From a virus (taxonomy: Duplodnaviria > Caudoviricetes), in IMG/VR virus record IMGVR_UViG_3300023181_000035, positions 1-54,693 of that record: a DNA stretch of 54,693 nt. One strand, 5' to 3'. The translations under genes were made by a program, and so were the position numbers. The stretch's first letter is position 1. Every line of letters starts with the position of its first letter. Below are positions 4,630 to 48,152 of this stretch, piece after piece. The notes under the pieces were generated by a model. The model ran no database searches. It saw nothing but the letters and a program-made list of their open reading frames with translations, and was not told where the DNA came from.

Positions 4630-4708
4630 TAACAAGGCAAAACATGGTGCTCCCGAAATAATAACGGAGGTGTGATCGTTTCTACTTTTGCCGCTAAAAA
4701 AGATAAAA

Positions 4709-5500
4709 ATGGAAAATAAAGAAAGAAGAAGTGGTAGAGAGAGTCCTTATTTTATAGATAGAGTAGGAGAAAGGTATTTAACTAATCAAGGATATTGGAT
4801 TGAGATTATTAAATGTTTTGGATCCTCAAACTGCTCAGTATCATTTGATTGTAATGGTGTAGTATTAAATAACTTGATATACTCTAATATCAAAAGAGGT
4901 CAAGTAGCTAATCCTTATCATCCCTCTATGTATGGTGTGGGTTATATGGGACAAGGGAAATATGTATCAAGTTTTAATTATATAGAGACAAAAGAATACC
5001 GTCTATGGAAAGACGTCTTAGAAAGATGCTATAATCCAAATTTTCATAAAAAAAGACCTAATTATGCTGATGTAAAAATGCACAGTGATTGGCACAATTT
5101 TCAGAATTTTGCGACTTGGGTTGAGAAAAATTTTAATCATTCTGTAATGGAAGGTTGGTCTATGGACAAAGATCTTAAAGTAAAAGGAAATAAAATCTAT
5201 TCTCCAGAAACATGCATATTTATCCCAATACCAATCAACAATATATTTGTAAAAATAAAAAGAAAATCTGGCTTACCTAGAGGGGTATGTAAGACAAAAA
5301 ATAATAGATATGTTTCAAAGATTAAAACAAACGGCAAAAGTAGAAATTTAGGAACATATGACACACCCGAAGAAGCCTTTCAAGCCTACAAAATAGCCAA
5401 GGAAATAGAGATTAAGAGAATGGCGGATGAATGGCGACCAATAATCGGAGAAATTGTGTACAAAGCCATGTACAACTGGGTTGTGGAAATAAATGATTAA
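4709..5500 (+). CDS. HNH-type homing endonuclease with C-terminal AP2-like DNA-binding domain
   Basis: W..FQNFA.W, DKD(L)KVKGNKIYSPETCIFIP, RNLGTYDTPEEAFQAY; ATG at 4709 preferred over the TTG at 4688. Confidence 0.7.
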   Translation: MENKERRSGRESPYFIDRVGERYLTNQGYWIEIIKCFGSSNCSVSFDCNGVVLNNLIYSNIKRGQVANPYHPSMYGVGYMGQGKYVSSFNYIETKEYRLWKDVLERCYNPNFHKKRPNYADVKMHSDWHNFQNFATWVEKNFNHSVMEGWSMDKDLKVKGNKIYSPETCIFIPIPINNIFVKIKRKSGLPRGVCKTKNNRYVSKIKTNGKSRNLGTYDTPEEAFQAYKIAKEIEIKRMADEWRPIIGEIVYKAMYNWVVEIND

Positions 5501-6412: not shown

Positions 6413-7033
6413 ATGAAGAAAATAATACTACATTTATGTGCTGACTTAGGAAGTGATTCGTTATTTTATCAATTAGATACAGATTATGAAGTTAGAATGA
6501 TTGGTGAGAAAATAGGAGTTGAAAATTACAAAGGTTCTGACGATATTTATGGTGTAATAGCTAACCCCGTCTGCACCCAATTATCAACCGCCAATGGATT
6601 TCACAAAGAAAATGATGTTGAAAAAGGTATGATATTAGTAAATCATTGTTTGAGAATAATTTCAGAATGTAAAAATTTAAAATTCTGGCAATTGGAAAAT
6701 CCCGCTAATGGGCGATTAAAAGAATTCTTAGGAAAACCTAAATTAATATATCAGCCTTGGGAATACGGAAGCCCTTGGACAAAGAAAACAGCACTGTGGG
6801 GAGAATTTAATATCCCTGATAAAACTTATAGTAAGTGGGAAAATGTGCCTAAAAATGATAGAATATATGTAAGACCAGGCAGACCAAAACCTGCACTAGC
6901 TTTCCTTCATAAATCAGCAGTTAATTTAATTCCTGAATTTGAGTGGGCTAAAGATAAAATTAAATGTGATGCCGACATACGAAGCATGTGCTCACAAGGA
7001 TTTGCAAAAGCATTTTATGAATTTAATAGATAG
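6413..7033 (+). CDS. Divergent cytosine methyltransferase-like protein
   Basis: LHLCADLGS (motif I-like), ANPVCT (motif IV-like), LENP (motif VI), KKTALWG. Confidence 0.6.
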   Translation: MKKIILHLCADLGSDSLFYQLDTDYEVRMIGEKIGVENYKGSDDIYGVIANPVCTQLSTANGFHKENDVEKGMILVNHCLRIISECKNLKFWQLENPANGRLKEFLGKPKLIYQPWEYGSPWTKKTALWGEFNIPDKTYSKWENVPKNDRIYVRPGRPKPALAFLHKSAVNLIPEFEWAKDKIKCDADIRSMCSQGFAKAFYEFNR

Positions 7034-7813
7034 ATTATGGAAATAGAATATTTATATACAGAAGGAAATCCAAACGCACCTATGCCAGTTAGACTAAATA
7101 AAAAAATAGTCGGAACAATTAAACCAGTTAAAGGTGGGTGGCAATATTTCCCGTTAAATCATAAAAAGGGAGGGGAAGTATTTGAAACTATTGGGCAAGT
7201 TCAACGTTCACTTGAATTTGTAGAGGAATAAAAACTAACTTAAATTAAAATTATGAAAAAACTAAGAGTAGCACACTATCCACAAATACCATGTAAACCA
7301 TTTATAGTGGAAGTAAAAGACGAAGAACAAGCTTATTTAGTAAGTGGAGCTTTGGCCAATCAACACCTATTTTTGTTTGAAAATAAATTTATTCCAGATT
7401 ATGCAAATATTATTTTAGTTCAGATGTTTGATGATGGTGAGTGGGTTGACTATTATAATGAAGAGTACGATATGGAGTTTGATGATTATACTGAGAATTT
7501 TTTAATTAAAAATGTATAAAATGAAAGAAAAAAATGTAATAATAGATTTTTTAACTAAAGCAGGTTTTGAAGAAAAAGGAAAAGACCAATACAAAAGGAA
7601 AGATACAGGAACTATTTTTATTAGAGAATGGAGTGCTTTAAAAGTGATGTGGCAAATTATGGAATTAGGTGAAAAACATCATGCTAAAAAAGTTAGAGAT
7701 GTGCTACATTTAACAGATGCTGTAGAACTGTATATATTTAATCCACAAGTTTAGTAAATTTCGCGCGAAAAAGAATAAAAACAAAGAAACAAGGGAAGAA
7801 ATTTACAATTTCG

Positions 7814-7844
7814 TTTGTTTATTAAAATAAAAACATTATATTTG
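7814..7844 (+). promoter_or_regulatory. Bacteroidota-type promoter upstream of the DGR-containing unit
   Basis: TTTG (7814-7817), 19-nt spacer, TATATTTG (7837-7844). Confidence 0.7.
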
Positions 7845-8104
7845 TAATATGAAAGAACTAATACAACAAGACTATAATAAAATAATTGATTTTAGAACAA
7901 ATTGGTTAGAAAAATTAGCATTAAAATATAATTTAACTGAGGCTCAAGTTTTAGAGTTAATTGATTTATGAAAGTAATATACATGGGAACAACTCTCGGA
8001 CTAATCCACGAAATACATCCTGAAACAGCTCAACAAATACTGGCAAAAGGAGAAGTAAAAGAAACAGAAAACAATTTAAAATATATTATAATAAACGAAG
8101 AGAT

Positions 8105-8668
8105 ATGAAAAATAATATAACCAGAGAAGAGTTAAAAAAGATACACGACATTGCTTGTGATACTTGGAAGCCAAAGTTAGCTAAATATGCACAAGAAGAC
8201 CCGTTCAGTGAAACAATAAAATTCACAGAGAAACAAATTAATGAAATGATTAAGGCTTGTACAGATGTTCAATTACCTGTAGTTAAAGAGATATTTGATG
8301 TCCGTGATAGCTGGGAAGATATTAAAACTGTAGAGGATGCAACTAACAAACTAGGTGAAAAAGATGAAGATGTGATCCAGCTTAGAAAATTAGAATCTGT
8401 AGATGGCTTAGCAGATTATATTTTAAATAATCAGATAGCTATTGTTGTAGCTAAAGCTTTAAATGATGGATGGGTAGCTAATTGGGATGATCACAATGAA
8501 TACAAATATTATCCTTGGTTTTATTTGGGTAAAAACTTCCGCTGCAATAGTTGCAACGGTTGGAATTCTAACTCGGATGCATCTTCCCGCCTCTCACTCA
8601 AGTCTAGCGAATTAGCAATATATGCTGGAAAACAATTCAAAGACGTATATGAAAAATTTATGAATTAA
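8105..8668 (+). CDS. DGR target protein 1 (187 aa)
   Basis: Contains VR1 encoding FRCNSCNGWNSNSDASSR; paralogous to 9792..10244 (ALNDGW.ANW...YKYYPWF vs AYNQGK.PDF...YKYTPYF). Confidence 0.85.
   Translation: MKNNITREELKKIHDIACDTWKPKLAKYAQEDPFSETIKFTEKQINEMIKACTDVQLPVVKEIFDVRDSWEDIKTVEDATNKLGEKDEDVIQLRKLESVDGLADYILNNQIAIVVAKALNDGWVANWDDHNEYKYYPWFYLGKNFRCNSCNGWNSNSDASSRLSLKSSELAIYAGKQFKDVYEKFMN
8536..8590 (+). repeat. DGR variable repeat VR1
   Basis: 55-nt ungapped match to TR 8703-8757 with 10 mismatches, all at TR adenines (9 A>G, 1 A>T). Confidence 0.92.
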
Positions 8669-8702
8669 AACAATAAAGGCCTAGTTTTCAGATGAATATT
8701 CC

Positions 8703-8757
8703 CTTCCACTACAATAATTACAACAATTGGAATTCTAACTCGAATACATCATCCCAC
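8703..8757 (+). repeat. DGR template repeat (TR)
   Basis: cttccactacaataattacaacaattggaattctaactcgaatacatcatcccac; intergenic, directly upstream of RT, 21 adenines, 7 AAY codons in the VR frame. Confidence 0.92.
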
Positions 8758-8872
8758 TTCTATTTACTAATATAGAAAACAAAAACCTTACCTCTTGGTA
8801 AAAAATAAAGAATTTAAAAGCTCATTAGTAAAGGAATTGAAAGTGAGCTTATATAAAGAGAGTTACAAGCCT

Positions 8873-9811
8873 ATGAAAAGAGTTGGTAATTTATATCAAA
8901 AAATAATATCAATAGATAATTTAAAAATAGCAGATAAAAAGGCCAGAAAAGGTAAAAGTAATCAGTATGGAGTAAAACAACATTTAAAAATAGAAATTGA
9001 GAATATAGAATCTTTATACGAACTACTGAATCATAATAAGTTTATCACCTCTAATTATCATAAATTTGAAATAAATGAAGGAAAGAAACGAACAATAGCT
9101 AGATTACCGTACTATCCAGATAGAATTGTACATCACGCACTAATTAACTATTTAGAGCCTTTGTTTGTATCAGTGTTTACTTCCGATACATATAGTTGTA
9201 TTAAGAAAAGAGGAGTTCATAAAGCATCTTACAATTTAAGAAAAGCTTTAAAAAATGTACCAGATACAAAATATTGTTTAAAACTAGATATTAAAAAATT
9301 TTATAATTCAATAGATCAAAAAATATTAAAGAGCTTACTCAGAAAGAAAATAAAAGATGTAATGTTATTGAATATGTTAGATGAAATAATAGAATCATAT
9401 GACGAAGGTCTTCCTCTAGGTTCTTTACTTTCACAATTTTTAGGTAATTACTATTTAACTTATTTTGATCATTGGATTAAAGAAGAATTAAAAATAAAAA
9501 ACTACTTTAGATACTGCGATGACTGTGTAATACTTGGTGATAATAAAGAAGATCTGCATGAAGTGTTTTTGAAAGTAGAAAAATATCTTAATAACTTAAA
9601 TCTAGAAGTAAAAGGTAATTGGCAAATTTCCCCTGTTAAAGACAGAAGTATTGACTTTGTAGGTTTTCGGCACTACCATACGCATACATTGTTAAGAAAA
9701 ACGATTAAAAAGAATTATATAAAAAGTAAAAACAAAGAACGTTGGAATGGGTGGTTAATCCACTGTAACTCATTAAATTTAAGAAAAAAGTATGAAAACA
9801 ATGAAAATTAA
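8873..9811 (+). CDS. DGR reverse transcriptase (~312 aa)
   Basis: MKRVGNLYQKI start, PDRIVHHA, LKLDIKKFY, GLPLGSLLSQ (DGR-type SQ), RYCDD catalytic motif, IDFVGF; ATG at 8873 preferred over TTG at 8795. Confidence 0.93.
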   Translation: MKRVGNLYQKIISIDNLKIADKKARKGKSNQYGVKQHLKIEIENIESLYELLNHNKFITSNYHKFEINEGKKRTIARLPYYPDRIVHHALINYLEPLFVSVFTSDTYSCIKKRGVHKASYNLRKALKNVPDTKYCLKLDIKKFYNSIDQKILKSLLRKKIKDVMLLNMLDEIIESYDEGLPLGSLLSQFLGNYYLTYFDHWIKEELKIKNYFRYCDDCVILGDNKEDLHEVFLKVEKYLNNLNLEVKGNWQISPVKDRSIDFVGFRHYHTHTLLRKTIKKNYIKSKNKERWNGWLIHCNSLNLRKKYENNEN

Positions 9812-10244
9812 TGTACCTTCGGGTTATGAAATTGATCAAGAAAAATCCACATTTGAAAATATTGTGTTTAAAGAGACGGTCAAAAATATCAGAGAACGTA
9901 TCCAGTCAATGAAGGATGTTTATGTATTAAATAATACTACTGAAGAAATATTTAAAAAAGCAGTAGAAAATTTAACTTCAGATGAGATAGGTTATAAAAA
10001 AGTAAAATTAATTGTGTCAGCTTATAATCAAGGAAAATTGCCAGATTTTAGTGATGGAACTTACAAGTATACTCCTTATTTCCAAATGAAGGAAAATGGC
10101 TTCCGCTACTATAATTGCAACGATTGGCCTTCTCGCTCGAATTCTTCATCCCGCCTCCTTTTTGTCGGCTCAGAGGCTAAAGAAAATATGTTAGACGCAG
10201 TTGAGAAATTTTTACCTGAATATAAACAATACCAATTAGGATAA
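9792..10244 (+). CDS. DGR target protein 2 (150 aa)
   Basis: Contains VR2 encoding FRYYNCNDWPSRSNSSSR; overlaps the RT 3' end; paralog of target 1 with a different N-terminus. Confidence 0.85.
   Translation: MKTMKINVPSGYEIDQEKSTFENIVFKETVKNIRERIQSMKDVYVLNNTTEEIFKKAVENLTSDEIGYKKVKLIVSAYNQGKLPDFSDGTYKYTPYFQMKENGFRYYNCNDWPSRSNSSSRLLFVGSEAKENMLDAVEKFLPEYKQYQLG
10100..10154 (+). repeat. DGR variable repeat VR2
   Basis: 55-nt ungapped match to TR with 11 mismatches, all at TR adenines (5 A>G, 3 A>C, 3 A>T). Confidence 0.92.
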
Positions 10245-10245
10245 C

Positions 10246-11184
10246 ATGAATCAAACATTTAAGAGAATCAACGAAGAAAGAGTATTATTCTTCGATTTAG
10301 AAGTTGCGAGAAAATCAAAGGAATTAGATGTAAACTCTAGAGAATTTGAGCTGTATCAAAAGAAAATCAGAAACAAAGAAACTGAGGAATTATTACCAGA
10401 TTTAGAAGTGGTAGAAGAATATAGAAAAAAGGCTGCCTTAAAAATGGGCTACACAAAAATAGTTTCTATAGGTGTTGGTTTTATAAAAGGCGAAGAACTA
10501 CATATTAAAGCACTTGAAGGGACAGAAGAAGAACTTATAGAACAATTTTGTAAAATAGCTAATAGTTTTGATTATGTTTGCGGTGTAAATATTTTAGGAT
10601 ATGACTTACCAATAACTGTAAACAATGGAATGAAATATTTTGATATGACGGAAATTCTTTCAGATCGTTTTATTACTTCTGGGAAAAAGCCCTGGAATTT
10701 GGATAGAGTATTGGATCTTATGGATATATTTAAAGGTACACACTACTCTAACAGCTCTTTAGATGAATTATGTTTTCATTTTGGTATAGAGTCTCCAAAG
10801 TCAGATTTAGATGGCTCTAAAGTATCAGAAGAGTATTGGACGAATGGTATTGTAAAAATAAATAAATATGTAAAACAAGATGTTTTCGCTAGTGTTAATT
10901 TATTTAAGAAAATGCGTTTTGAAAAAGTATTTGAAGATTTTATTGATAAGAATGGCAATGATAACTTCGAAATTAAGAAAAATGCAATATCTAAACTATA
11001 TGATAATAGTAATTTCCCTAAAGAATTAAAAGAAGAGTTTATTAAGTCTTTAGTTAACTTAACAGATGAAGATAGAGAAAATTCTAAAAAGATAATTTTG
11101 GCTCACTATCAGAAAAAAGGAGATAAAGTTGCAATAAAAAAGGAAAAAGAAAAAGAAGTTAATGATTTTATAAATTCAATTTAA
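10246..11184 (+). CDS. PolB-like DEDD 3'-5' exonuclease
   Basis: FFDLEV (ExoI), NILGYDLP (ExoII), YVKQDV (ExoIII). Confidence 0.8.
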   Translation: MNQTFKRINEERVLFFDLEVARKSKELDVNSREFELYQKKIRNKETEELLPDLEVVEEYRKKAALKMGYTKIVSIGVGFIKGEELHIKALEGTEEELIEQFCKIANSFDYVCGVNILGYDLPITVNNGMKYFDMTEILSDRFITSGKKPWNLDRVLDLMDIFKGTHYSNSSLDELCFHFGIESPKSDLDGSKVSEEYWTNGIVKINKYVKQDVFASVNLFKKMRFEKVFEDFIDKNGNDNFEIKKNAISKLYDNSNFPKELKEEFIKSLVNLTDEDRENSKKIILAHYQKKGDKVAIKKEKEKEVNDFINSI

Positions 11185-11972
11185 TGATAATTTTACCAGG
11201 CCAGTATACAGAAGGAATTTGGAAAAGAGGGGGTTCAGTCCCACAACATGAAAAATACATAGGAAAATATTATACCAGTTGGTCTAGTATAGAATCTTTT
11301 AATGATAAGTCAGGTTTTAATACAGGTTTATTAGGGGAATTTGAGTACATTTTAAACAAATTTTCTGGTATTAAGTTTCCCGATCTCGGATGGGGTCAGT
11401 ATGGTAGTGAAACAGAGGCTTATATTACATTAAGAGATCGGGAAGATTTATCAGATATTGACGAGAAAGTACAACAAGAATTTAAGGACGCCATAAATAA
11501 TTTCTCTGATAAAGAAAAAAAGCTATTAAATCAAATACAACCCTTAGGCGTTTTTCAAACCGAAATATGTTATTATATAGAAGAGATTGATATAATATTA
11601 CTTGGTTATGTAGATGATCACTCTCCTATTGTAGATGGAAAAATTAAAATGTTACGCGATTATAAGACTAAATCGGAATCTTCTAAAAAAGATTTACATG
11701 ACCCAAAAAAGCATCAAATTGAGGGCTATGTGTTGGGGTTTAATCAGGAAGGCTATGAAGTAGAGAATGCAGAATATTGCATAATTGAACGTAATGGTGG
11801 TAGAGAGTGTATGCAAGGAGGAGGAAGAGAATCTTTATCAGTGGGTGATAGAATTTGGTATGAGAAATATAATTGGGACGAGGCCAGATTAAAAGTTACA
11901 CACCAAATGATAATTGATACTGCTAAAAGAATTTCATCCTTATATTCTACATATAAAAAATACTTCGTTTAA
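11184..11972 (+). CDS. PD-(D/E)XK nuclease (Cas4/RecB-like phage exonuclease)
   Basis: SWSSI, E...GYVDD...RDYKT...HQIEGY motif order. Confidence 0.65.
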   Translation: MIILPGQYTEGIWKRGGSVPQHEKYIGKYYTSWSSIESFNDKSGFNTGLLGEFEYILNKFSGIKFPDLGWGQYGSETEAYITLRDREDLSDIDEKVQQEFKDAINNFSDKEKKLLNQIQPLGVFQTEICYYIEEIDIILLGYVDDHSPIVDGKIKMLRDYKTKSESSKKDLHDPKKHQIEGYVLGFNQEGYEVENAEYCIIERNGGRECMQGGGRESLSVGDRIWYEKYNWDEARLKVTHQMIIDTAKRISSLYSTYKKYFV

Positions 11973-11974
11973 TC

Positions 11975-12006
11975 TTTGGTTAATTAAAATAATAGTTGTA
12001 AGTTTG
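11975..12006 (+). promoter_or_regulatory. Bacteroidota-type promoter
   Basis: TTTG-N20-TAAGTTTG. Confidence 0.65.
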
Positions 12007-14041: not shown

Positions 14042-14073
14042 TTTGTATAAGTAGTATTATATTCTTATATTTG
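14042..14073 (+). promoter_or_regulatory. Bacteroidota-type promoter for nrdB-nrdA
   Basis: TTTG-N20-TATATTTG. Confidence 0.7.
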
Positions 14074-17504: not shown

Positions 17505-17699
17505 TTGGCGCATAAATACAGTAAAATAACGAAAGAATCTGTTTTAAAGCTTTTTTCGCGCGAAAAACAAGTAATAAACAGAAATTACATAGCAAAACAA
17601 TTAAACTGTTCTGTATATAGCGTAAGAATAGCCTTAGAGCAATTAAAAGACGATAATAAAATTAAATTAAGTAATCATGGATATATTAAAAACAATTAA
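17505..17699 (+). CDS. Small winged-HTH DNA-binding protein
   Basis: NRNYIAKQLNCSVYSVRIALEQLKDDNKI HTH pattern; TTG start. Confidence 0.55.
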   Translation: MAHKYSKITKESVLKLFSREKQVINRNYIAKQLNCSVYSVRIALEQLKDDNKIKLSNHGYIKNN

Positions 17700-18666
17700 A
17701 TATTACAACAATCGCCCTGTATTAGTTTTACAAAAACATGAAGTAGCTGATTTTTATCAAATACTCGTAGATATCGAAATACAAGATATTGATTTAGATC
17801 ATATCGCAGAATCTTTCAGAGGTTGTGATGCTTGTATGGTTGGTCATAAATCTACATGTTATTGCGACGAATCAGTTGCAAAAGCCTATGATGTTGTAGA
17901 GCGAATTATCGAGGATTATAAAATAAAAGATTCGCAATTATTTTATGTTCCAGCTAAAGATTTAAAAGATACTCCTTTCGAATGGAGAGAAAACAAAGGT
18001 CTTGTTGATAAAATTAAAGGAAATAAAGATGTTCTTAACGGACTGATTGATATTGTTGCCGAAAATAAGAGCTTGATTAAGCAACAAGAAAAACAATTGT
18101 CTGACAACAAATCAGAAATTTATAAGATGGATGCTATTGTTGAGAACAGAAAATCTTTAACTGAAATGGTAATTAAGGATTACGATAAATTAAAATCAGA
18201 CATCGAAGAATTAGAGTCTAAAAAGGAATTAATTGTTGTTGATTCCGAGGTTAAAATTGAATATTCAGAGTATGAAAAATTACTAAAACGGGATGAAATA
18301 CTCTCTGCTTTGGAAATTGGTGGAGTTGATAATTGGGAATGGTATGGTGAATCACTTAAAGGTATAAATGATGAAGAATAATACAAGAGAATTAAGTGAA
18401 TTAGGCCAAGAAATAAGTAGAGATAAAACAGTACTTCTTCAAATAGCTATTGAATTAGGGTTATTAGAAGATAAATCACTATATCAATATGATTTTACAG
18501 ATTATGGTATATGGGGAAGTAATGATTCTTATGCAATTATTTCACCAACACAAAATACTATAATCAGAATACCTAAAGATGTAAATGAGTTTGAAAATTT
18601 ATCTTTTAAAATAGTAAAGAAATTAAAAGAACATGGATTTGATATTGGTAATTTAACACTATAAAA

Positions 18667-22011: not shown

Positions 22012-22043
22012 TTTGTTTTTGCCGAAAATATATTGTAAATTTG
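22012..22043 (+). promoter_or_regulatory. Bacteroidota-type promoter
   Basis: TTTG-N20-TAAATTTG; the spacer contains a TTTTGCCGAAAA motif. Confidence 0.65.
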
Positions 22044-23826: not shown

Positions 23827-24546
23827 ATGGCAAAAACATTCAAAAATATTATAGTTGGTATTTATAAAATAACTTCTCCTTCAGGTAAAATATACGTAGG
23901 TCAATCTAAACACATTGAAAAAAGATTCTACGATTATCAAATAGCTAGGTGTGAACAACAAAGGAGACTTTTCAATTCCTTATTTAAGCATGGCTGGAAA
24001 AACCACATATTTGAAATAATAGAAGAATGTGACAAAGAAGAATTGGATTGCCGTGAACGCTATTGGCAGGATTTTTATGATGTTAAAAGCAGAGAAAAAG
24101 GTTTAAATTGTAAACTTACTGCATGTGGAGATCTAGTAGAAGAAAAAACAATAATTAAAATAAGAAATTTAAACCCTGATCATGTAGGTAAGGGAGTACT
24201 GAAAGGGGAGAAACACCCTAATTGGGGTAGAAAATATAGCGAATTTGAAAGATTTAAACTCTCAGTCTCTAAAGATAAAATAAGTGATGTTGATAAACTA
24301 GTATTATTAGATTCGTTTGTAGAAGGAGATTTGGAAAAACGTTATTCAGCGAGGAATAAAAAGCAAATTCAACTTAAACAGGAAAAGGAAATTCACCATA
24401 AATCAAAGATAATACTAGATACTAATACAGGAGTATTTTACTATAGTTTAAGAGAATTATGTACCCTCTATGGATTTAATTATCACACTTTAAAAAACAG
24501 ATTGAGAGGGGCTTTAAAAAATAAAACTCCTTACATTTACGTTTAA
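23827..24546 (+). CDS. GIY-YIG homing endonuclease with NUMOD3-like motif
   Basis: GIYKITSPSGKIYVGQS, R...Y, ERYW, GLN; GEKHPNWGRKYSE; C-terminal NUMOD1-like HTH. Confidence 0.85.
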   Translation: MAKTFKNIIVGIYKITSPSGKIYVGQSKHIEKRFYDYQIARCEQQRRLFNSLFKHGWKNHIFEIIEECDKEELDCRERYWQDFYDVKSREKGLNCKLTACGDLVEEKTIIKIRNLNPDHVGKGVLKGEKHPNWGRKYSEFERFKLSVSKDKISDVDKLVLLDSFVEGDLEKRYSARNKKQIQLKQEKEIHHKSKIILDTNTGVFYYSLRELCTLYGFNYHTLKNRLRGALKNKTPYIYV

Positions 24547-30137: not shown

Positions 30138-30169
30138 TTTGGAAAATTAAAATAAAAACATTATATTTG
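30138..30169 (+). promoter_or_regulatory. Promoter for structured leader B and its endonuclease gene
   Basis: TTTG-N20-TATATTTG. Confidence 0.7.
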
Positions 30170-30288: not shown

Positions 30289-31392
30289 ATGAATAAGCCA
30301 ATAAAGACCCATCAACAGTTTATAACAGACCTTAACAGAGTACACCCTAATAGAGACTGGCAAGTAATAGGAGAATATGAACATAATAAAAAACCCTTAT
30401 TATTAAGAGATAAATATGGAGATTGTTTAATACCTCCAAATTGTTTACTACAAAGATCTAAGCCTTCTGTAAAAACAGCTATAGATAAAACAGAATACAC
30501 AATTAATAAATTTAAAGAACTTTGGGGAGATAGGTACGACTATTCTAAGTTTGTATATTTAGGTGCTCGAAAAAAGTCGATAATAATTTGTAAACTTCAC
30601 GGTGAGTTTCCACAAGATGCTAACATGCATTTATCAGGAAAATGTGGGTGCCATAAATGTGCAAATGATGCAGTATCTTTAAGAGTTAGAAGTAATACCG
30701 AAGAGTTTATTGAGAAGGCAGTTAATAAATACGGAAAAGATAAGTTTTCTTTTAATAGTGCAATATATAAATCAGCTACCGAAGATGTGGTGATAACTTG
30801 TAAAGTACATGGAGATTTTGAACAAACACCTAATAGATTTTTAAATGGTCAAATTTGTACAAAATGTAGTTATAAAGAAAGCACAGCTAATTTTCACACA
30901 TTAAAAAAGAAGAGAAACAATTGTATTCTATATGTTATAGAATGTTATAACGATGAGGAAAGATTTATTAAAATAGGGGTTACTACTAGGAATATAACCG
31001 CCCGATTTAAAGATAACTATGACATGCCTTATAAGTATACGGTACTTAGAGAATTCAGATATGCTAATATAAATGCGCCAGATGCAATTGAGACCCATCT
31101 TTTAAAATTTACAAGAGGCGCAAGTTATATTCCTAAAATAAAATTCAGCGGACAAACAGAAGCTAGGAACATGTGCATAAAAAGTACCTTATTAGACTTA
31201 TTTGATGTTTATTGTGATGAACTATACTATATTGCTTTTATTAATTTCACTAAAGCATATTCGGGAGTTTTTGATGTAAGCCTACTAAACTCTGACAGTT
31301 ATTCTAAATTAGAGATTGAAACAGTAATGAAAGGATATGAAATTCATAAAAATTTTGAAAATAAACAGCTTACTACTTGCACAGTAAATTAA
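30289..31392 (+). CDS. Putative homing endonuclease: DUF723-like zinc-ribbon repeats plus GIY-YIG-like (T5orf172-type) domain
   Basis: Repeated YDYSK..Y.......IICK.HG.F.Q....HL.G..C..C; LYVIECY....FIKIGVT....RF. Confidence 0.7.
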   Translation: MNKPIKTHQQFITDLNRVHPNRDWQVIGEYEHNKKPLLLRDKYGDCLIPPNCLLQRSKPSVKTAIDKTEYTINKFKELWGDRYDYSKFVYLGARKKSIIICKLHGEFPQDANMHLSGKCGCHKCANDAVSLRVRSNTEEFIEKAVNKYGKDKFSFNSAIYKSATEDVVITCKVHGDFEQTPNRFLNGQICTKCSYKESTANFHTLKKKRNNCILYVIECYNDEERFIKIGVTTRNITARFKDNYDMPYKYTVLREFRYANINAPDAIETHLLKFTRGASYIPKIKFSGQTEARNMCIKSTLLDLFDVYCDELYYIAFINFTKAYSGVFDVSLLNSDSYSKLEIETVMKGYEIHKNFENKQLTTCTVN

Positions 31393-39732: not shown

Positions 39733-39764
39733 TTTGGTAGTATAAAAAACAATCCTTAGATTTG
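39733..39764 (+). promoter_or_regulatory. Bacteroidota-type promoter
   Basis: TTTG-N20-TAGATTTG. Confidence 0.65.
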
Positions 39765-41401: not shown

Positions 41402-42064
41402 TTAATCTGTTATTTCTACTACCCAACTATGCATGGCTTGATAAACCTTTTCTCCAATCAAGGGTCGCCAATAATTTGCTTTTTCTTTAATATAAGCTTC
41501 TTTAGCGGTTTTATATGCTTGGAAGGCTTCTTCAGATGTGTCAAAAGTTCCTAAATATTTAGTCTTACCGTCTATTTTCATTGAGGTCTTATATCTGTTT
41601 TGGTTTTTTAAATAGTGGACTCCAATAGGGTATTTTCCTCGTATTTTATTGTTTTTAACAAAAAGGGAATTAAGTTCTTGCGGGACAAAACAACAAGTTT
41701 CAGGAGAATAGATTTTGTTACCTTTCACTAAGATATCTTTGTCAAGATGCCAATCAGACATATAAGTCTTAAAATTATCATTATACCAGGAAATAAACGA
41801 TTGAGCATTCTTCCACTCTTCACACAATTCTACTTGTATATAAGTTTTATCCTTAATAAGTCCTTTATTACTGTAACATCTGTACTTAATACCTTTCAAA
41901 ATATGTTTTGCCCTTTTATCCCCATAACTTCTCTTATTATGTATAGTTTTTTCTAAATTAATATATTTTTTAATTATTAAAAGTATTTGGTCTTCATAGT
42001 TTTCTACTACTTTATTAATTCCCAGCTCTTTAATTTTTGTTTCTATTAATAACTTTTTATTCAT
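41402..42064 (-). CDS. HNH-type homing endonuclease with AP2-like domain (paralog of 4709..5500)
   Basis: DKDILVKGNKIYSPETCCFVP, YLGTFDTSEEAFQAY; ATG at 42064. Confidence 0.7.
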   Translation of the reverse strand: MNKKLLIETKIKELGINKVVENYEDQILLIIKKYINLEKTIHNKRSYGDKRAKHILKGIKYRCYSNKGLIKDKTYIQVELCEEWKNAQSFISWYNDNFKTYMSDWHLDKDILVKGNKIYSPETCCFVPQELNSLFVKNNKIRGKYPIGVHYLKNQNRYKTSMKIDGKTKYLGTFDTSEEAFQAYKTAKEAYIKEKANYWRPLIGEKVYQAMHSWVVEITD

Positions 42065-42993
42065 TGAATTTCTTGTTTTATAATTCTTCAAATCTGTTTT
42101 GTTTAACTTCTTTTAACGCGGAGCATACATCATTACACTCACTTAACAACACTTTTAAGGCATCATCTTGTGTTTGACTATAATGAACCTGTATTTTACT
42201 TTTTATTGTCTCTAAATGCTCTATTTGCTTTAATAAGTCGTTGGCTATATTTAAGTTCTCTTTTGTCAAAATTAATTAGTTTTGGTTTGTAATCTTTTTA
42301 AGTCAGCTTTAAATCTCTCGTATTCCGTCCATTCGCAAGCTGAAGAAGTTTCAATATATCTGTGAATTAATTCGTCCACGATTTCATAGTAATCTAGATG
42401 GCGGGTAGAAAATCCTAACTCCTCAAATACTTTCATTTGTTCTTTTTGTTTCTCATTCATAATTACTCTATTTTATATTCTGGTATATCTATCCATCTAC
42501 TTACTACTTCCTGTGAGTTTCTTCCATCAACACAATACCAATTATCACCCTCGTAATGACATATTTTATACATGTTGTAGTTAGGGTTAATTTCGTTCTC
42601 TATATACACTAATTTTGATTTATCATCTTCTGGCAATTCCTCGCCTACTAAATTCCATTTACTCATTTTTATAAGGTTTTATTTCTTCGCATTTTAATTC
42701 ATATGTTTTACTACACCAATGACTAGCTGGTTTTTGATAGGTGTATGTGTATTCAAATTGACCTGTCCAGCCCGTTTCATAAGAATAAAGTCCGTTGTGG
42801 TCTTCTCCATATTCTTTTCCTAAGTGGTACAAAACCAAATCTCCTGTTTTATTTTCACCGTCATCTTTTGTTAGTCGGCCAACTTTATATCTGAAATTTT
42901 TAAGTCTCTCTAATTCATGATCTTGGAATCCGTTTTTAAGTTCTGTGAAGGCTTGAGGATATTTTCTTTTTAACCATTTGTTGAATTCCATAG

Positions 42994-47054: not shown

Positions 47055-48152
47055 TTATTTGCTAAAATATGTCGAACTGGTTATATTTAATTCTAAGTTT
47101 GTTAATAAAGGCATTATATTTCTTTTTATATCCCTATTTATTTTTGAGCAAAGCGGTTGAAAATTACTCCAATGATTCAGTAGGTATAATTCTTCTTCAT
47201 TTCTTGCTTTTGTGATAGGTATAATATGGTCTAAATCCCATGAGCAATTATAATTTAGTTCGGAACAAATGTTACCATGATTTTCCCAAGTCATCCAGTT
47301 TAAAAACTGAGATTCAATATGCTTTTTGAATTCTTGTATTGTACATTGTAATATTTCTTCTGTTCTTTTTGATTTAATTACTTTTCCTTTTGATGTAGAT
47401 TTTATACTTTTTCTTATTAGCCCTTTAATGTTGTTTACTAACATATACTCCTTATCATGCTTCCAAGTGTTGTTGTACTCTTCTCTCTTTTTCTCCCTCA
47501 AATAATCTTTGTTTTCCTCCCTCCATTTTTTATTTGACAACGCTATTATTTCTTTATTATTTTCTCTGTAGGTTGAATCACAAATTTTACAATAACAATT
47601 ATGGCCTGTTTTGGTGCCTTTATTTTTATTAAAATTCTCTAATGTTTTAGTCTCTTTGCATTTAGGGCATTCTTTTAAATTATCATATGGGATTATTTTA
47701 TCTTTGCTTTCAATTAAAGTAATAACATATACCTTATTGCAGTCTTTACATTGAGAGTCAAATCCATCTTTTTGTATACTAGCTTTGAAAAATTCTGAAG
47801 TGGGTTTTGCAATATTGCATTTTCTGCATACTTTATGACTTACTAATTGTTTTTCTTTATTTTTTATTAATTGAGCATCTTGCTTGGTACAAACTTTACA
47901 TCTCGAATTATAACCAGTGGTTTTGTGTTTAGTTTTTGAAAAATCTTTTAATTCCTTTGTAAAACCACAACCAGAGCAAGTCTTAATTCCTCCAATAGGT
48001 ATTATTTTTTCTTTAGCGTTTCTTTCTTCATCTTTTATCTTAGTACATGATTTACATACAGAAGTCACGCCATATTTACCTCTTTTTTGGCTATAATATT
48101 CTTCAATTGTTTTTTCTGTATTACAATAAGTGCAGATTTTTACTAAGCTCAT
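47055..48152 (-). CDS. HNH endonuclease with four CxxC...CxxC zinc-ribbon repeats
   Basis: Four K.C..C...K....F.........C..C repeats; FKKHIESQF...MTWENHG...WDLDHIIP...LNHWSNFQPL...N. Confidence 0.82.
   Translation of the reverse strand: MSLVKICTYCNTEKTIEEYYSQKRGKYGVTSVCKSCTKIKDEERNAKEKIIPIGGIKTCSGCGFTKELKDFSKTKHKTTGYNSRCKVCTKQDAQLIKNKEKQLVSHKVCRKCNIAKPTSEFFKASIQKDGFDSQCKDCNKVYVITLIESKDKIIPYDNLKECPKCKETKTLENFNKNKGTKTGHNCYCKICDSTYRENNKEIIALSNKKWREENKDYLREKKREEYNNTWKHDKEYMLVNNIKGLIRKSIKSTSKGKVIKSKRTEEILQCTIQEFKKHIESQFLNWMTWENHGNICSELNYNCSWDLDHIIPITKARNEEELYLLNHWSNFQPLCSKINRDIKRNIMPLLTNLELNITSSTYFSK

Follow-up and report, generated by a model that had tools for sequence, protein, structure and literature searches.

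A phage locus is described here at which the genes diversified by a diversity-generating retroelement (DGR) are small and lie among early genes. In a DGR, the reverse transcriptase (RT) copies the RNA of a template repeat (TR) with adenine-specific errors, and the resulting cDNA replaces the variable repeat (VR) of a target gene. To our knowledge, DGRs represent the only natural system of targeted protein hypermutation outside vertebrate immunity, and those of phages are explained almost wholly by tail-fibre tropism switching. The locus described here is located in IMG/VR virus record IMGVR_UViG_3300023181_000035 (Duplodnaviria; Caudoviricetes), positions 1 to 54,693 of which were analysed (54.7 kb, hereafter referred to as the window; the record is 38% complete), and which represents a phage of a Bacteroidota host with a genome of roughly 140 kb. 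Positions 8105-10244 of the window constitute a complete DGR, in the order target 1, TR, RT, target 2. As judged from sequence comparisons, this DGR is active, its two targets belong to a large family of DGR targets, and members of this family are encoded among early genes in very different phages; that the targets bind a variable ligand inside the infected cell is proposed with about even confidence.

An active DGR with two internal variable repeats

The RT translation carries LGSLLSQ and YCDD, which we take to be typical DGR RT motifs ([I/L/V]GxxxSQ and YxDD, respectively), and the true start of this gene is probably the ATG at position 8873, since most relatives align only from residue 25-27. 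A repeat search of the window identified a single repeat family of three copies with a 54-nt core, and a scan of both window strands allowing up to five non-A mismatches returned no further TR/VR copy. Over these 54 nt, VR1 and VR2 differ from the TR at ten and eleven positions, respectively, all of which coincide with TR adenines. Both VRs are internal, as had originally been predicted, being followed by approximately 25 codons in target 1 and approximately 29 codons in target 2. Read in the VR frame, the TR specifies F-H-Y-N-N-Y-N-N-W-N-S-N-S-N-T-S-S-H, including seven AAY codons, and adenine changes alone in codons 2-15 allow for ~4.4e10 proteins, with no stop codon possible. Both VRs also share a T-to-C change one base past the core (TR position 8758) and a G for A at 8756; this pattern is consistent with the look of a boundary between an initiation of mutagenic homing site (IMH) and its counterpart IMH*. 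A GC-rich hairpin was not found downstream of either VR, where an inverted-repeat search gave only 6-nt AT-rich palindromes.

Among the 28 window open reading frames (ORFs) scanned against Pfam, none matched the Avd or HRDC families, which fits the report that Lineage 3 DGRs lack avd (Wu 2018). The window element is an Avd-less DGR, belonging to Lineage 3 of Wu 2018 and clade 1 of Roux 2021. An ORF of ~98 aa (phrog_19665, without Pfam match) is located at, or overlaps, the RT stop in eight of nine small-phage cassettes scanned, e.g., L011:7895-8188, L016:7924-8217, L019:8126-8419 and L029:7970-8263 (L numbers denote loci of the target family), and is absent from both the window and loci L003-L006. 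This ORF is a candidate accessory factor for Avd-less DGRs.

Comparison of the window with closely related contigs points to ongoing activity of the element. The IMG/VR contig L003, whose RT is 98.5% identical to that of the window, exhibits 0-3 differences per 50 nt across positions 8200-10400 outside the VR bins, as compared to five and nine differences per 50 nt in the bins of VR1 and 16 in that of VR2, and none in the TR core. All differences in the VR cores fall at TR adenines (10/10 for VR1 and 16/16 for VR2, i.e., 26/26 in total), and five differences situated just beyond the cores (8524, 8527, 8536, 8597 and 10091) are ordinary substitutions. Four further runs (X2-X5), corresponding to four samples from four studies labelled leaf litter or rhizosphere, yielded contigs with different letters at these VR1 and VR2 positions, the combination being particular to each contig, and no TR-core difference is present among the differences listed; being a contig-level comparison, these runs provide support only. 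Furthermore, AAY codons account for seven of the eight highest-entropy columns among the 22 full-length homologues in alignment A1.

The same contigs differ from the window in other respects. A 40-aa ORF (7848-7966 region) is replaced by 19 nt in the X2, X4 and X5 contigs, and both X3 and L003 diverge strongly upstream of position ~8200, from which it follows that the N-terminal domain of target 1 and the genes preceding it are mosaic, and that the core, TR and RT are conserved. In one of the X2 contigs (2510 nt), position 8325 is directly followed by 10246, and the last part of target 1 would thus be lost together with the TR, the RT and all of target 2; this junction is weak, with only 30 letters on its shorter side. 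The target 2 copy of L004 (L004:7661-8032) is apparently frameshifted at or near the VR, its conserved post-VR segment lying in another frame; this may reflect either a misassembly or a target that is no longer intact.

The targets belong to a large family of DGR-diversified proteins

The sizes originally given for the targets (187 and 150 aa) and the absence of a signal peptide were both substantiated: no signal peptide or membrane segment was found in the targets, and a crude script detected neither a hydrophobic N-terminal run nor a 19-residue window with a mean hydropathy of at least 1.6 in any of 68 family members. The two targets are paralogous, sharing 39% identity over residues 98-185 of target 1 (E 4.6e-9), and both match phrog_11581, to which no function has been assigned (3.6e-19 and 5.4e-4, respectively). 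A word-indexed search with target 1 returned 71 homologues, many on contigs of ~140 kb, and a full profile search extended the family to 5200 clusters at 50% identity with E<=1e-3 (3548 with E<=1e-10). Relatives of the family are present in at least 320 stretches of IMG/VR. Searches against other resources were less rewarding: a tblastn search of the phage collection with target 1 returned nothing at 1e-3; PADLOC, NCBIfam and PDB sequence profiles returned nothing informative for the targets; and the ESM Atlas gave nothing beyond unnamed viral clusters or a score of 0.78, which is below the threshold.

The 150 best-scoring members are mostly 125-165 aa in length, with some tandem fusions of 250-350 aa. 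Conserved elements of the family are IKTxEDA, AKALNEGW and NEYKYYPWF, followed by a variable stretch with a fixed W and S, and by (G/S)SRLCFKSxELAxYAGKQF. Residues N120 and Y135 are invariant, and K117, L119, Y133, K134 and others are present in at least 90% of the family. The relative position of VR1 is 0.78-0.87 and that of VR2 0.69-0.81. Nine longer forms were found, most of which are tandem fusions; of the others, one is fused to DUF285 and one is probably a chimera that carries a membrane segment. None of the nine represents an enzyme or effector fusion. The sole informative domain fusion among them is P0077/P0078 (387 aa), in which the family core is followed by C-terminal DUF285 repeats (PF03382, 1.4e-62).

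The association of this family with DGR machinery is consistent. A homologous RT, 46-98% identical to that of the window, is encoded directly downstream in 74 of the best 80 loci, usually behind two or three tandem family genes, and an adenine-specific TR/VR pair was detected by a crude script in at least 57 of these 74 RT-bearing loci. The latter count is a lower bound, as the script demanded at least five A-mismatches and no more than two non-A mismatches, and excluded by design the copy nearest to the TR. All four ~140-kb relatives (L003-L006) share the target-RT-target order seen in the window. The phrog_11581 family is a bona fide DGR target class.

Family members are encoded among early genes across phage backbones

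The surroundings of the cassette were compared for 20 loci by searching flanks of ~6 kb against PHROGs; nine loci were searched with their cassette ORFs, and eleven by means of flanking ORFs of at least 100 aa only, L061 without its last six ORFs. No tail fibre, tube or baseplate gene was detected within ~6 kb in any of the 20 loci. The lone match to a PHROG of the 'tail' category is a T4 Rnl1-type RNA ligase beside a polynucleotide kinase in L004, and the targets of the window have no PHROG tail match. This ligase and kinase, a tRNA-repair pair (L004:1775-5016), are situated within ~1 kb upstream of target 1 with one ORF between them and the target.

Instead, the flanks contain replication and recombination genes, including those for SbcC-like nuclease, RecT, SSB, RecE- and lambda-type exonucleases, replication initiators, DnaB/DnaC, primases and DNA polymerase, in addition to CI-like repressors, an anti-repressor, integrases, Mu-type transposase with MuB, and ParB. 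DNA methyltransferase genes flank the cassette in L006, L056, L067 and L073, and in both the window and L006 a gene of the gp17-like superinfection-exclusion family precedes the cassette, in the window by 600 nt. The early-gene placement holds across very different phage backbones, and the argument from gene context in the original prediction, i.e., that the targets lie among early genes and not in a tail module, holds for more than this one phage.

Predicted fold

An AlphaFold2 model of target 1, based on a 44-sequence alignment, was obtained with a pLDDT of 89.1 and a pTM of 0.73. The model places nine helices (four residues or longer) in the stretch ending at residue 119 and two more beyond residue 168 (helices 168-186), with coil between them and lone bridge residues at 135 and 165. 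This arrangement tentatively suggests a small helical platform from which a VR loop of ~25 residues would emerge, pinned between YKYYPWF and (G/S)SRLxFKS.

Foldseek searches with the model gave no PDB match at E<=0.001, all matches in BFVD were uncharacterised phage proteins, and comparisons of models gave no structural match to any virion protein. With regard to the minimal C-type-lectin fold raised in the original prediction, neither Foldseek nor VIA-align returned a lectin match, and the model is still compatible with a minimal lectin fold. Pfam likewise gave no credible domain for the two targets or the 44 aligned members, and specifically no FGE-sulfatase, DUF1566, Mtd or lectin domain; a PDB profile search with the targets yielded nothing below E 0.03. 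What the window VR has in common with lectin VR classes is a W-x-S-x-S...S-R-L pattern only.

The DGR unit and its neighbours in the window

From 7849 to 11972 every gene is on the + strand, and this unit is bracketed by two copies of a promoter-like motif (Table 1). The motif, TTTG-N17-21-TAnnTTTG, which we take to be the Bacteroidota promoter consensus, occurs 12 times in the window as compared to 4.05 expected, a three-fold enrichment that was reached by none of 100 shuffles. E. coli-type sigma-70 promoters are not enriched (25 versus 30.5 expected in a window scan with the E. coli consensus). The predicted reading of the unit from a host-type promoter thus holds for a Bacteroidota-type motif with a copy directly before the unit, and a Bacteroidota host is supported by the enrichment of this motif and by the best match of the DNA polymerase, i.e., to Cellulophaga phage phi14:2 with 33% identity. 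Other copies are located, for example, at 14042-14073, 22012-22043, 30138-30169 and 39733-39764, several of the copies lying in intergenic gaps right before gene blocks. The sole terminator-like match lies inside VR1 on the opposite strand and was read as chance. The DGR appears to sit in an early operon read from a host-type promoter. That this unit runs into exonuclease genes was confirmed for the gene at 10246-11184 (PF10108, phrog_25228); for the one at 11184-11972, no match was found in Pfam, PHROGs, NCBIfam or PDB sequences.

Table 1. Coordinates and assignments of the DGR components and of the unit in which they are located.
Feature	Position	Strand	Match or remark
Promoter-like motif TTTG-N-TAnnTTTG, Bacteroidota-type	7814..7844	+	within intergenic gap 7755-7848, ahead of DGR unit
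40-aa ORF, opens DGR unit	7849..7971	+	phrog_34020, 2.8e-7; dispensable in relatives
46-aa ORF	7968..8108	+	no family match; overlaps target 1 start
DGR target 1, 187 aa	8105..8668	+	phrog_11581, 3.6e-19; helical N-domain of ~66 residues and family core domain with internal VR
VR1 core, target 1 codons 145-162	8537..8590	+	10 A-mismatches and 0 others versus TR
TR core, non-coding, intergenic	8704..8757	+	7 AAY codons in VR reading frame
DGR RT	8795..9811	+	PF00078, 1.5e-19; phrog_1423, 3.4e-104
DGR target 2, 150 aa, alternative start 9801	9792..10244	+	phrog_11581, 5.4e-4; overlaps RT stop
VR2 core, target 2 codons 104-121	10101..10154	+	11 A-mismatches and 0 others versus TR
3'-5' exonuclease, PolB-exo-like	10246..11184	+	PF10108, 1.4e-12; phrog_25228, 1.6e-54
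262-aa ORF, closes DGR unit	11184..11972	+	no family match
Next promoter-like motif, marks unit end	11975..12006	+	

The gap between target 1 and the RT gene measures 126 nt. Beyond the unit, the + strand of the window represents a replication block with genes for ribonucleotide reductase (RNR), DnaB, DNA polymerase and many homing endonucleases, and a 2102-aa virion protein is encoded on the - strand from 48292. Scattered between the replication genes are at least four genes of homing-endonuclease type (HNH/AP2, GIY-YIG), i.e., at 4688-5500, 23827-24546, 30289-31392 and 41402-42091. Genes of counter-defence type are spread across the early region and specify a C5 cytosine methylase (777-1397), a methyltransferase-like protein (6413-7033), the gp17-like superinfection-exclusion-family protein (7253-7519), a T7 gp5.9-like protein (17677-18381) and a Lar-like/endonuclease VII protein (47055-48152). 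The T7 gp5.9-like RecBCD-inhibitor domain forms the end of its protein (PF25708, 1.1e-14). No integrase gene was found in the 54.7 kb available from this incomplete record.

Family members in Bacteroides phages and their relation to large targets

A search of the phage collection with a central family member returned eight records, representing seven isolated or induced phages of Bacteroides and Phocaeicola and the metagenome-assembled crAss-like phage cr56_1. In LoVEphage (OY731433.1), the family gene CAJ1878432.1 (54812-55396) is located among genes for a resolvase, methyltransferases, PAPS reductase, a radical-SAM protein and RtcB, 14 kb from the RT gene. The TR beside this RT matches the VR of the small gene, with mismatches only at TR adenines apart from the first and last aligned columns. 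As this LoVEphage TR also serves a large second target, the small family and that class of large targets have the VR segment in common as a module. A 5S rRNA annotated by barrnap in the same record (57700-57805; L084:9757-9862) falls within the early region of the phage, 2.3 kb downstream of the family gene.

In phage BT-TP2, the family gene follows a gene annotated as encoding an HTH-domain protein and adjoins those for an integrase and a cro/C1-type regulator, and the large gp44 (2262 aa) adjoins the RT. When the family profile was aligned by hhalign with the last 226 residues of gp44, 33 VR columns were matched with a probability of 12%, and no homology was found outside these columns. The family gene of cr56_1 is surrounded by small hypothetical genes, the RT gene being ~54 kb away. 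The target of crAss-like phage cr60_1 was dropped as a comparator, its translation containing a stop and its TR/VR being unrelated in sequence to those of the window.

Comparison with catalogued DGRs

The original prediction saw in these targets a new role for a phage DGR; the family itself is not new, as it had already been catalogued as target cluster PC_00007 (Roux 2021), and small tandem Lineage 3 targets are listed in Wu 2018. In Roux 2021, PC_00007 is among 24 main target clusters, and the classifier assigns it to 'other' rather than 'structural'; sequences of phrog_11581, including those bearing NEYKYYPWF in the target FASTA, are labelled PC_00007 'Phage_other' in the supplement. The targets of the L007 contig are listed there as PC_00007, Phage_other, viral, FCB, DGR clade 1 and RT cluster REF_DGR_[t122]FP929032.1, with VRs at relative positions 0.63 and 0.75 (0.63-0.80 among the cluster members compared). 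The window's own protein was not found among the Roux 2021 target sequences compared, and PC_00007 is not mentioned in the main text of that paper. According to the same source, annotated VR regions always adopt lectin folds, uncharacterised VR domains are probably new lectin variants, and characterised phage DGRs all diversify receptor-binding proteins.

In Wu 2018, entries 120 and 121 describe small targets (157 and 124 aa, and 132 aa, respectively) upstream of TR-RT under category f4, and entries 122 and 123 a remote small target 36-38 kb from the RT. Small Lineage 3 targets are filed there under VR class CLec3 with the note 'aligns poorly', and the large-target counterpart in an Alistipes element is filed as CLec3. 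These small targets were equated with the present family by size and layout rather than by sequence, and the peptide motif of the family was not found in the Wu 2018 supplement. A later paper (Nature 2025, PMC12629997) describes second VRs that are distal and lie close to genes of counter-defence. In the literature searched, no experimental characterisation of the family was found.

The window DGR resembles other PC_00007 elements in its target family, internal VR, TG-TR-RT layout (target gene, TG), lack of avd, viral and Bacteroidota (FCB) assignment, and clade 1 RT. It differs from their usual layout of two to three tandem copies upstream in that its RT has one target on each side, from other members in that its target 1 carries a distinct 66-residue helical N-domain and the phrog_19665 ORF is absent, and in the habitat labels of its relatives, i.e., leaf litter and rhizosphere. 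The distal VR genes of LoVEphage/Hankyvirus type (PMC12629997) include CAJ1878432.1 and hence the same family, with methyltransferase and repair genes as neighbours; there, however, the small gene is a remote secondary target beside a large one, whereas the only targets found in the window are small. With the C-type-lectin variable proteins, e.g., Mtd of BPP-1, TvpA and TaqVP, the window targets share an AAY-rich TR, adenine-specific variation and fixed scaffold residues within the VR, and the (G/S)-S-R-L-x-F-K following the VR resembles the conserved end of CLec3-class VRs. Unlike those proteins, the window targets have a VR that is not C-terminal, a mostly helical model, no lectin domain or match, and no tail context. 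The tentaclins reported in Baykov 2023 (PMC10743442) likewise comprise two different target genes under one phage DGR, but reportedly consist of an N-terminal C-lectin and an Ig-domain and were proposed as receptor binders, whereas the window targets contain neither domain and are mutual paralogues.

What the variable loop may bind

In the mechanism favoured here, cDNA would replace the 54-nt VR in both paralogous genes, re-drawing ~14 codons (seven AAY, two TAC, CAC, ACA and others) around a fixed Trp and Ser, such that at least ~4e10 proteins per target could be formed. The ~25-residue VR loop would be displayed on the small helical platform predicted by the model. That the targets are not virion parts, but soluble proteins that are produced alongside the early gene products and recognise a variable intracellular ligand during infection, is in our judgement an evenly poised proposition. 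It is favoured by the tail-free flanks, the early, replication or lysogeny neighbours, the lack of hydrophobic segments and the class 'other' in Roux 2021. The most likely form of this proposal, which we advance tentatively, is that variable proteins of the host, from defence systems or otherwise, are bound or inhibited by the targets; paralogues that occur in tandem or flank the RT, and differ in their N-termini, would in this case form an array of binders. Neighbours of counter-defence type, i.e., methyltransferases, the gp17-like protein and the T7 gp5.9-like RecBCD-inhibitor domain, are encoded in the window. Somewhat more speculative is an extension to the whole of PC_00007, according to which the cluster would constitute an antibody-like repertoire of cytoplasmic binders, built on a non-lectin helical scaffold and directed against polymorphic host immune (or rival-phage) proteins. 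Phage populations would then always hold variants that neutralise whichever immune proteins are met, and the large targets of this element type, which are probably structural, would be the source from which the VR module was acquired.

Multicellular bacteria reportedly possess DGR-diversified STAND NTPases acting as 'antigen sensors', which are said to be cytoplasmic components of conflict systems. These sensors (Dore 2024) are the nearest precedent for an intracellular variable binder. They are cellular, large, multi-domain proteins with lectin-fold VRs and effectors, whereas the window targets are of 150-187 aa, phage-encoded and devoid of an effector domain.

Several observations weigh against an intracellular, counter-defence role. 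Functional statements on these targets rest on gene context throughout, and no similarity of the targets to known anti-defence proteins was found; a 2026 preprint, moreover, reports no DGR targeting a known anti-defence protein and most targets as being without annotation. Modelled residues 141-160, i.e., the VR loop, have a low pLDDT (54-62), which renders the picture of a loop on a helical platform tentative. Head, packaging or connector genes flank five of the 20 loci: the L076 cassette lies between the genes for the large terminase and the portal protein, those of L031, L039 and L044 have such genes on the opposite strand, and in L052 a protease gene is located 1.7 kb downstream. Finally, the LoVEphage TR that matches the small gene also matches the C-terminal VR of the large second target (the gene of which is cut by the record end), and the Roux 2021 table places PC_00002 Phage_struct and PC_00007 Phage_other under one RT. 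As this TR serves both targets and the large equivalent is classed as structural (Roux 2021), a shared type of ligand outside the cell is conceivable.

An unlikely alternative is that the targets are accessory adhesins of the virion, the variable N-termini of which dock on tail or capsid, so that additional receptor or mucus binders would be encoded away from the structural module. Such a role would accord with the VR segment shared by the two LoVEphage targets, the hhalign placement of the VR columns on the C-terminus of BT-TP2 gp44, the L076 locus, and the receptor-binding function of all characterised phage DGR targets (Roux 2021). Against it stand the lack of tail genes near any of the 20 loci, the strand and operon shared with early, replication or lysogeny genes, the Phage_other class, the confinement of homology to ~33 VR columns at low hhalign probability, and the lack of a structural match to a virion protein.

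A role in conflicts between phages is improbable: the variable loop, produced by a prophage or early in infection, might recognise proteins of competing phages in superinfection exclusion or as a sensor. Integrase, CI-like repressor or Mu-type transposase genes in the flanks mark many carriers as temperate, the BT-TP2 gene lies right behind integrase and regulator genes, and the superinfection-exclusion-family gene upstream of the cassette in the window and L006 would fit such a function, as would the cytoplasmic DGR targets reportedly found in bacterial conflict systems. However, no effector domain was detected, proteins of 117-190 aa dominate and the longer ones are mostly tandem fusions, the cassette is oriented with lytic early genes and not with a repressor, and the portion of the genome covered by the window lacks an integrase.

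Quite improbable is a lectin-like decoy that is released upon lysis and binds receptors on debris or neighbouring cells, thereby sparing progeny from abortive adsorption. The VR module common to a large second target would allow for such a decoy, and release by lysis requires no export signal, yet two VRs that are mutagenised independently cannot stay matched to a fibre, the genes are placed in an early operon, and no structural-type target with a VR is present in the window, which covers only part of the genome. Least probable of all is that a portable VR segment was copied into an unrelated small gene and is mutagenised without benefit, for although homology to other targets of this element type is confined to the VR segment and L004 is apparently frameshifted near VR2, the open frame and scaffold residues are kept across the 5200 clusters, one to three copies beside the RT are the only targets in most loci, and the TR is built of AAY codons, which avoid stop codons.

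Implications for phage DGRs

The family itself is already known from two large surveys (2018 and 2021), and a link with counter-defence neighbourhoods was noted in 2025. New here are the early placement across phage backbones, the VR module shared with large targets and the lack of a detectable lectin fold, together with the target-RT-target layout and the missing phrog_19665 ORF in the ~140-kb phage group. The family represents a very large second class of phage DGR targets, which are small, soluble-looking and encoded with early, replication and counter-defence genes. Cultured carriers exist, i.e., LoVEphage, BT-TP2 and relatives on Bacteroides. If the proposed antibody-like repertoire is real, it would be the first counter-defence system known to be driven by a DGR, and massive DGR variation would have a second natural scaffold, this scaffold being a compact natural loop-display module of ~120 residues. 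If the targets do act inside the cell, DGRs would also fuel the intracellular arms race between phages and their hosts.

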